A stretch of 25,942 nt of DNA from a virus (lineage: Duplodnaviria > Heunggongvirae > Uroviricota > Caudoviricetes): IMG/VR virus record IMGVR_UViG_2563366768_000033, one strand, 5' to 3'. The number at the start of each line of letters is the position of its first letter. The stretch's first letter is position 1. Shown here piece by piece: positions 23,411 through 24,367 of this stretch. Under the pieces are notes generated by a model. The model was not told the origin of the DNA. It ran no database searches and was given only the letters and a program-made list of their open reading frames with translations. Made by a program: the position numbers and the translations under genes.

Positions 23411-24367
23411 TTATTTTTGAATTGATTTAAACATCCCATCGAGTTGTAATTTATTTATGTCGGTTTTCTTTATGGCTTTAATTAAGTTTTCAATAACTTC
23501 CAAAGAAAAAATTACATCTTTCTTTTCAATTCTAACCCCCCCGTGGTGGCTGCAAGCATTAAGGATGTCCTTTGTAATTTCAACATCATTTTTCATTAAT
23601 GGTTCATAGTCCAGAGCCTCAATAACAGAAACTAAACTACCTAGCATTTGCTCTTGGTATTGAACGTTGTTTAAATGCATTATACGAATATTAACAAGCA
23701 TGAGAATATATTCTAAATATCTCCTGGCAGTATTTCCTTTCTCTTGTAAAGAATCACGATCATATTCCTCAATACTCATGACTTCATTATGTAAAGAGGC
23801 TATTTTGTGCTCTGCTAATGAAATATTTATCGCATCCATGAGGTTTCGTGAGAAGCCTGTAGATGTAACATGACCATTTGCGGGCCTTGTTAAAATACAT
23901 GTAGTATAGCAATTTATATTTGGGGTCTGGATTGTCTCATTTACTCTTTTAACCGTTCTATAAACGTCTACCATATAAGAACCTGAGTTTTCAAATGAAC
24001 ATGAAGAGCATTTTGTATTATATATTCTATTTAGAGATAACTGATTGTGATAGTATCCCTTTAAGAAAGCATATATAGTGTCATTAAACTCGACAAACAC
24101 AACGGACTCAATATATATATGGAATTTATCATTGGGGTGCCACTCTAATTCAAGTCTTCTTGTAGAGTCATCAAAGGAAAAGTTTGAAATAAAATCCCAG
24201 TTACCTAAATCTATAAAATCAACGATATTTCTACCTGCACCATGGATATTTTTATTTATTAAAGTTGTGATTGAGTTTTTTATAATGTCCCAATCATGAA
24301 TTTCATGATCGAATTTATTATTGATGGTTTCTTTTATTTGATTGGAAAAGTTTGAATAACTAGTCAC
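23411..24367 (-). CDS. hypothetical protein (318 aa), very AT-rich orphan gene at the right end of the P4-like element
   Basis: Long uninterrupted minus-strand ORF MTSYSNFSNQIKETINNKFDHEIHDWDIIK... with Asn/Ile/Lys-rich composition unlike neighbouring satellite core genes; no motif I can assign. Confidence 0.6.
   Translation of the reverse strand: MTSYSNFSNQIKETINNKFDHEIHDWDIIKNSITTLINKNIHGAGRNIVDFIDLGNWDFISNFSFDDSTRRLELEWHPNDKFHIYIESVVFVEFNDTIYAFLKGYYHNQLSLNRIYNTKCSSCSFENSGSYMVDVYRTVKRVNETIQTPNINCYTTCILTRPANGHVTSTGFSRNLMDAINISLAEHKIASLHNEVMSIEEYDRDSLQEKGNTARRYLEYILMLVNIRIMHLNNVQYQEQMLGSLVSVIEALDYEPLMKNDVEITKDILNACSHHGGVRIEKKDVIFSLEVIENLIKAIKKTDINKLQLDGMFKSIQK

Follow-up and report, generated by a model that had tools for sequence, protein, structure and literature searches.

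A horizontally mobile accessory gene in the alpha-att slot of a P4-like satellite of Escherichia coli O157:H7, and the predicted HEPN-like fold of its product

We analysed a stretch of 25,942 nucleotides (nt) of DNA, hereafter the window (IMG/VR record IMGVR_UViG_2563366768_000033), which is the thrW region of Escherichia coli O157:H7, and in particular an AT-rich gene located between the alpha (primase-helicase) gene of a P4-like satellite and the right attachment site (att) of this element. The gene lies at 23411-24367 on the minus strand and encodes a protein of 318 amino acids (aa), from a GTG start to a TAA stop codon. RefSeq lists the protein as 'hypothetical protein' (WP_000205213.1), and no mention of WP_000205213 was found in the searchable literature. 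We report that this gene is accessory cargo of the minor alpha-att slot of P4-like satellites, not one of their core genes, and that it is a functional, horizontally mobile, stand-alone gene. As for its role, the position, the neighbours and the predicted fold lead us to propose, tentatively, that the protein may be a stand-alone, sensor-gated HEPN-type anti-phage effector of the abortive-infection type.

The cassette and the alpha-att slot

The gene is contained in a cargo cassette of ~1.36 kb (23307-24664), formed by the gene itself with ~300 bp of 5′ and ~100 bp of 3′ DNA, which has no counterpart in related satellites (blastn against E. coli TL012, locus L105; E. coli LR-03, L109; and Scandinavium lactucae, L049). 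With TL012, homology is found at int (85% identity), and over the core through alpha and the 28 bp that follow, hairpin included, to position 23306 (71%). It resumes at 24668 and continues through the right attachment site (attR) into the chromosome (89%). Between these two points, 1361 bp of the window are replaced in TL012 by 1510 unrelated bp carrying a different gene (L105 13746-14819), also AT-rich, whose 357-aa product (WP_198068590.1) is without Pfam or PADLOC match, and which is a further candidate for the alpha-att hotspot. In LR-03 the slot is empty: homology extends to 23306 and is back ~20 bp later, at 24665. A solo SIR2-like gene of 365 codons fills the slot in Scandinavium lactucae, which has a 94% identical alpha, and in E. 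coli LR-21-1 (L049 8485-9582 and L107 5566-6663, the two copies being 94% identical). Its match to the PADLOC SIR2 models is weak (E about 3e-9), so that it is possibly a SIR2 defence of one gene not yet classified. In E. coli VE-T9, finally, an HNH/type-IV-restriction-enzyme-like gene and a restriction-enzyme remnant were found. Depending on the satellite, the alpha-attR interval was thus empty, or held a SIR2-like gene, an HNH gene or a different uncharacterised gene. Such sharp boundaries, and the existence of a satellite with an empty slot, bear out the suggestion of a preliminary description of the window that this is a second accessory cargo gene. The role in abortive infection or exclusion that was put forward there would rest on location, neighbouring genes and fold prediction.

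On the left side, a GC-rich hairpin with a 14-bp stem (23281-23311) directly follows the alpha stop codon and occupies the 132 bp that separate it from the gene. This hairpin, which is the terminator between the two convergent genes, has a counterpart in the related satellites, the blastn homology to them reaching 23306. On the right side, the cassette is followed by a conserved att-proximal arm of ~230 bp (24668-24897), 89% identical to TL012 from 24668 on and ~74% identical to LR-03 over 24665-24781. Its first bases form the inverted repeat GTGAACAGTAAAGTGTTCAC, and within it lie repeats of the TGTGTATAGG type, which are also present by int. The inverted repeat opens the conserved right arm in three satellites (24667-24687 here, L105 15020-15050 and L109 5524-5555). 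The sequence TGTTCACC may resemble the alpha-protein iteron of P4 ori/crr; it occurs as a single inverted pair at 24667-24687, its counts in the stretch were not significant, and the idea of a P4 crr iteron was dropped. A hidden att copy between alpha and the gene, which would have made the latter part of a separate remnant, was also looked for, and none was found. The cassette ends show no target-site duplication, which fits a swap of cassettes by recombination between the conserved flanks rather than transposition.

The preliminary description had mentioned about 500 bp of AT-rich DNA upstream of the gene. The full non-coding stretch does measure 526 bp, with 31.6% GC, and consists of two parts, the ~300 bp that belong to the cassette and the ~230 bp of the conserved satellite arm. 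The cassette-specific part (24368-24667, minus strand, 30.7% GC) does not resemble the flanks of homologues found elsewhere, and presumably holds the gene's own promoter. Promoter-like sites were not above chance (7, versus 9.7 +/- 3.2 expected), and an Rfam scan of 23200-25042 gave no RNA match.

Whether the gene belongs to the core was surveyed in 80 P4-like alpha loci from other species, one genome per species, with flanks of up to 6 kb. A tblastn search with 143 family sequences detected no family member within 6 kb of alpha in any of these loci. The gene thus falls outside the P4 core, and one outcome that the preliminary description had held against its own proposal, conservation in most P4-like satellites, was not observed. 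In the 80 loci, the GC content is 0.30-0.49 over the first 1-2 kb after alpha and 0.46-0.68 over the last 2 kb of alpha, with the exception of locus L043. The first 2.5 kb after alpha contain 143 open reading frames (ORFs), which form 113 clusters; the family scan took 108 post-alpha ORFs/clusters, those starting within 1.7 kb. This scanned set includes integrases of tandem islands, AAA_15/AAA_21 genes (AriA/PtuA/GajA/NsnB-like), reverse-transcriptase-type genes, and Fic, Mrr, TIR and HNH genes.

A primase-att minor defence hotspot, with 7% of P4 defence systems, was reported in P4-like satellites (PMC13586616, NAR 2026), the main and better-known one being int-psu. The slot is thus known and the gene is one of its uncharacterised occupants, so its earlier placement outside the known cargo slot no longer holds. 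Like the cargo of this hotspot, it sits between alpha and attR, has an AT-rich foreign composition, and is variable between conserved flanks. Unlike known P4 cargo, it matches no PADLOC model, and it matches none of the novel P4 systems in the main text of that report (Crouga, Bandua, Aernus, Toga, Reve and Hailong; PMC13586616). A gene inside an att-delimited satellite, beside alpha and the att arm, might also act in the satellite life cycle, in helper exploitation or interference or in the control of replication or packaging, as psu, sid and delta do; one Providencia homologue even adjoins an Ogr/Delta gene in a satellite-like remnant. Such a role is very improbable, however, for a gene that is absent from all 80 other P4-like alpha loci and missing from an otherwise similar satellite with an empty slot, and whose homologues mostly lie outside satellites, in an integrative and conjugative element (ICE) and in chromosomal islets.

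The gene and its family

The ORF, whose coordinates were confirmed exactly, has a GC content of 31.3%, whereas that of alpha is 52.3% and that of the satellite core 49.9%. Its location downstream of alpha, convergent with it and inside the right thrW repeat, was as announced: alpha, the left border of the slot, spans 20888-23278 on the plus strand, and the right att core lies at ~24898-24916. The protein is indeed rich in Ile (11.0%) and Asn (9.7%), while Lys, also cited in the preliminary description, is moderate (6.3%). The GTG start is unambiguous: the frame is closed by a TAA two codons ahead of it, and codons 1-40 offer no alternative start. A Shine-Dalgarno sequence, GAGG, can be read 7 nt before the GTG (24375-24378, minus strand). 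At 31% GC, ~8% of random codons would be stops, and by our own rough arithmetic the probability that a frame stays open over 318 codons by chance is ~1e-11. Ratios of non-synonymous to synonymous substitution rates (dN/dS) of 0.06, 0.12 and 0.13 were obtained against the three closest homologues, which are from Citrobacter, E. coli and Providencia. The ORF is therefore a real gene under purifying selection, with intact homologues, and not a disrupted remnant devoid of them, the other outcome that had been envisaged.

Of the complete E. coli genomes, only 307, all O157:H7/O55:H7, have this copy, always with an intact ORF, and they are also the ones that carry this alpha at 99% identity or more; satellite and cassette are fixed in the O55:H7/O157:H7 clade. 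The sequence is ~100% identical within the clade, so selection is not measurable at that level. Judging from the element type, its size and the strain, the satellite most probably corresponds to Sp2, which is the single P4-like prophage of O157 Sakai and whose P2-like helper is defective there (PMC2669165).

One may ask whether the gene is an inert passenger in this clade, that is, AT-rich foreign DNA silenced in O157, for example by H-NS, and without current function there. We regard this as improbable, because the ORF is intact in 307/307 carrier genomes, the family is under strong purifying selection between lineages, and the gene has a good ribosome-binding site and a terminator. The idea draws on the ~31% GC of the gene and its 5′ region, on the apparent immobility of the carrier satellite in Sakai (PMC2669165), and on the ~100% identity within the clade, over which selection leaves no measurable trace.

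Described as an orphan, the gene turned out to have some 35 close homologues and to belong to a superfamily of 108 clusters. A word-indexed search returned 35 relatives with 44-80% identity, all annotated 'hypothetical' and nearly all of full length (313-323 aa), from Citrobacter, E. coli, Providencia, Pantoea, Pectobacterium, Proteus, Serratia, Enterobacter, Salmonella, Klebsiella, Buttiauxella and Aeromonas, as well as one distant protein of 477 aa. The 33 full-length homologues share 58 invariant columns. An exhaustive profile search yielded the 108 clusters (at 50% identity) with E < 1e-3, 65 of them with E < 1e-10; this superfamily, with a mean identity of 14%, includes a Vibrio cholerae group and some fusions of 470-610 aa. 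A second word-indexed search with the superfamily alignment gave almost nothing extra, and no names. This is an undescribed family; candidates that consist, like this one, of a single gene now turn up often. From phage and plasmid collections it is essentially absent, with one marginal match in each. The sole phage match (MZ983385.1 1718-2131, Psychrobacillus phage PVJ1; 29% identity over residues 146-286, in the HEPN-like domain described below, E 9e-4) may point to a remote relative on a phage, or be noise.

With the Citrobacter copy, the closest homologue (76.5%), the DNA is similar over exactly the ORF and not beyond its ends, and neighbour genes differ in every homologue context examined. 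The Citrobacter homologue (P0002) is carried by an ICE, between an N6/N4 methylase gene and ArdC and near a type I restriction-modification (RM) system and AAA_15. The E. coli homologue (P0032) directly follows int in a different thrW island. Of the two Providencia copies, one (P0009) belongs to a satellite-like remnant, in the order Toprim primase, DCD, Ogr/Delta, homologue, alr; the other (Providencia sp., P0037) is in an AlpA/int island beside mutS. A distant homologue from a metagenome (P0036) adjoins an MmeI-type RM gene. The GC content of family genes is 30-36%, even in a Serratia genome of 63-66% GC. In the E. coli locus L093 (8715-16327; GCA_034532695.1), a 44%-identical member placed right after the integrase of a different thrW island is followed by genes for an uncharacterised 387-aa protein, a response-regulator-like protein of 149 aa and a 1091-aa protein of the Y4jQ family; this gene group may be another defence cluster.

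These contexts bear on another possibility, an addiction-module toxin that stabilises the island and has no part in defence, its antitoxin being an unannotated small RNA or peptide encoded in the 300-bp 5′ region. HEPN toxins are often found in toxin-antitoxin (TA) pairs, such as RnlA-RnlB and HEPN-MNT (PMC8266594), and the long AT-rich 5′ region of the cassette does contain small ORFs. In the flanks of 10 homologue loci, this one included, no small ORF was common to any two, so that the homologues share no candidate antitoxin of that kind, and even the Citrobacter copy, 76.5% identical, has unrelated DNA around it. Nor did Rfam find an RNA, and on the downstream side the 132 bp up to the alpha stop, with the hairpin inside, leave no room for a gene. 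We hold an addiction toxin to be improbable.

Predicted fold and possible activity

AlphaFold2, run with 33 sequences, gave a confident two-domain model (mean predicted local distance difference test score, pLDDT, 87.8; predicted template-modelling score, pTM, 0.84). The N-terminal domain (residues 1-165; 23873-24367, minus strand) consists of two helices and a beta-rich core, and has a conserved VDFIDxGNWD segment; its residues D50 and D58 are nearly invariant over the superfamily. Modelled alone, it reached a pLDDT of 92.6 and no enzyme fold was matched. It is predicted to be a small, beta-rich domain of binding type (YojF/HemS/PH-like). The C-terminal domain (residues 170-318; 23414-23860, minus strand) is modelled as an up-down alpha-helical bundle with the HEPN topology, and its fold matches further include Csm6, AbiA, Cas13b and Las1. 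We therefore speak below of a HEPN-like domain.

Conserved polar residues of this domain fall on two elements. The first is a helix face, N212-T-A-R215-R216-Y-L-E219-Y-I-L-M223 (23699-23734, minus strand), which reads N-x2-R-[RK]-x2-E-x3-K in the superfamily: N212 is found in 72 of 79 members, R215 in all 79 and E219 in 78, and position 223, Met in the present protein, is Lys in 76/79. The second, N270-A-C-S273-H274-H-G-G277 (23537-23560, minus strand), is located at the C-terminal end of helix 261-273 and corresponds to N-x2-S-H-[DE]-[ST]-G in the superfamily (N270 73/79, S273 74/79, H274 77/79, [DE]275 and G277 being conserved as well). The preliminary description, which could assign no motif, can thus be refined: the C-terminal domain has a predicted HEPN-like fold, with a conserved non-canonical motif.

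The proposed mode of action is as follows. The N-terminal domain would keep the HEPN-like domain switched off; once it senses a protein or ligand of phage origin, the HEPN-like domains would pair, as in HEPN RNases, which act without metal at a dimer interface. A composite site, proposed to combine the N212/R215/E219 helix face and the N270-x2-S273-H274 loop, would then cut host or phage RNA and stop the infection, to the benefit of the host and of the resident satellite. Several observations point towards this sensor-gated effector, besides the purifying selection, the cargo status, the reported primase-att hotspot, the defence-type genes found after alpha in other species, the solitary mobility of the gene and its persistently low GC content. 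The slot holds SIR2-like and HNH/type-IV-restriction-enzyme-like genes in related satellites; mobile elements and defence genes abound around the homologues (the ICE, the edge of int islands twice, the satellite-like remnant and the MmeI-type RM gene); and the polar residues that survive at 14% mean identity sit on two elements of the HEPN-like domain.

In architecture, the protein resembles RnlA/LsoA (RNase LS, an anti-T4 type II TA system of E. coli) as well as other sensor-plus-HEPN effectors. RnlA and the present protein are of similar size (357 and 318 aa), and both have one or more non-catalytic N-terminal domains followed by a C-terminal HEPN or HEPN-like domain. In RnlA as here, an early helix bears an R-x2-E pair, and a later helix has a His-containing motif where it ends on the C-terminal side (PMC8266594); the RnlA pair, R255/E258, is an extra one on an earlier helix (PMC8266594). 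Differences are nonetheless marked, as the N-terminal domain is YojF/PH-like here and TBP-like in RnlA/LsoA, and our protein has no sequence homology to them, no adjacent antitoxin gene and no Arg of the Rx4-6H type. Minimal HEPN domains and HEPN-MNT toxins (PDB 1wwp, 2hsb, 7ae2, 5yep and 8xdj) show 7-14% identity and no profile match. The protein departs from HEPN-MNT toxins by the lack of an MNT partner, by its additional 165-residue N-terminal domain and by N-x2-SH in place of Rx4-6H. Compared to CARF-HEPN proteins (Csm6/Csx1), the HEPN domain of AbiA and Cas13, it is without CARF, reverse transcriptase or Cas context, its N-terminal domain has another fold, and its gene is solo.

A number of results weigh against an immune RNase. 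HEPN RNases bear Rx4-6H at this helix-end position (PMC8266594), a pattern not found here: Leu or Ala occupies position 269, and only 15/79 superfamily members have an Arg 7 residues before the His. The hallmark HEPN Arg is absent, and catalysis is therefore uncertain. Sequence-profile searches of the PDB, with the close family or with the superfamily, returned nothing relevant, and hhalign of the superfamily profile with K-12 RnlA gave a probability of 0.4%. Foldseek found nothing in the PDB at E <= 0.001, with only faint matches to RnlA (E 0.05) and CorA. With the Arg missing and no profile link to HEPN families, the domain is best called HEPN-like by predicted fold, not a demonstrated member. 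At the level of the whole protein, Pfam, NCBIfam, PADLOC and PHROGs gave noise only (no match at E <= 1 in PADLOC v2.0.0), and the 79 superfamily members, compared with Pfam and PADLOC, matched only DUF3775, on N-terminal extensions of 6 longer members. The Proteus, Serratia and Enterobacter homologues lie in plain chromosomal islets without defence neighbours. Autoinhibition, moreover, is assumed in our proposal, as a solo HEPN RNase without antitoxin would need it. Finally, no excision, replication or packaging of Sp2 was seen in Sakai (PMC2669165), and therefore any present-day benefit would go to the host.

Since some HEPN domains only bind, the HEPN-like domain might be non-catalytic, and the protein a binding or regulatory factor, such as a nucleotide- or protein-binding adaptor, or an anti-defence or stress-related factor, and not an RNase immune effector. 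The invariant R215 and the near-invariant E219, N270, S273 and H274 resemble an active site in a superfamily of such divergence, however. There is also no partner nucleotidyltransferase (MNT) gene or other conserved neighbour, and the slot and mobile-element-edge contexts are those typical of defence cargo. We consider a non-catalytic factor rather unlikely, and retain the sensor-gated HEPN-type effector as the likeliest reading, though a tentative one. Its extension to the whole superfamily (108 clusters without Pfam, PADLOC or NCBIfam model) is possible, if doubtful: these proteins, with the present one as founding member, would be single-protein immune RNases in which a PH/YojF-like sensor gates a HEPN-fold nuclease that lacks the hallmark arginine and relies in its place on the N-x2-S-H-[DE]-[ST]-G loop and the invariant R-x3-E face, and would represent a new HEPN catalytic variant and a new stand-alone defence system in the alpha-att slot.

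The thrW locus and what the cassette means

The surroundings of the satellite are those of a tandem insertion locus. In the window, proA is followed by the tRNA-Thr gene thrW (1369-1444) and by a first island of 10.5 kb (1445-11984), with its int at 1459-2433 on the minus strand. The left att of the satellite (11985-12036, plus strand), identified by repeat and alignment, is a second copy, 52 nt long, of the 3′ half of thrW and marks the junction with the upstream island. The P4-like satellite, of 12.9 kb, is delimited by this att and by the right att core (plus strand), CCTATTATC-GCACCA, which repeats the 3′ end of thrW in degenerate form. Genomes of E. coli without the islands align from ~24894-24901 onward, and a chromosomal LysR gene lies beyond the core. 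Two integrative elements are thus found in tandem at thrW (1369-24916), with att copies of three different lengths: the complete tRNA, 52 nt and a degenerate core of ~18 nt. We take the sizes of the two elements to fit those of Sakai Sp1 and Sp2.

Within the satellite, int (12142-13374) is followed by the AT-rich cargo of the main int-psu hotspot (13378-16654), then by ogr/delta, psu and sid, a helix-turn-helix gene, an Icd-like gene, a DUF5375 gene, and alpha. The main hotspot contains six AT-rich ORFs with 30.9% GC, two of which are labelled 'ABC-three component system' proteins in RefSeq; as it is also occupied, the satellite carries cargo in both hotspots. The repeat AATGTGTATAGG(A/G)(T/G)TGTGT(A/G)TA is present by the start of int (12141-12162) and in the right arm near attR (24819-24840), and these two copies are plausibly arm-type integrase binding sites of attP. 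In the first island, positions 5132-5239 hold five tandem units of ~20-24 nt, all with a palindrome inside (TATCCCTCAAAACGAGGG / ATCCCTCAAATTGGGGGATTGCT), which resemble iterons or arrayed operator sites. In O157:H7 PV15-279 (L001 8338-10531), the integrase adjoining thrW is cut by IS1203 and the first island is absent, the gene studied here and the right end being unchanged; the thrW array therefore varies within the clade.

Should its function not be defence, the gene would be an ordinary hypothetical cargo gene. Whatever the function, the alpha-att slot, found empty or occupied by a SIR2-like, an HNH, an uncharacterised or the present gene, offers a very clean case of natural cassette exchange, which supports the recent claim of a second defence hotspot and suggests using this slot position to nominate new defence genes. 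If our proposal is correct, a compact one-gene anti-phage system of 318 aa would be added to the catalogue, and the arginine-less variant of the HEPN active site would be relevant to research on HEPN RNases. This system would then be present in every O157:H7/O55:H7 genome examined, which would matter for the phage-based control or typing of these bacteria.

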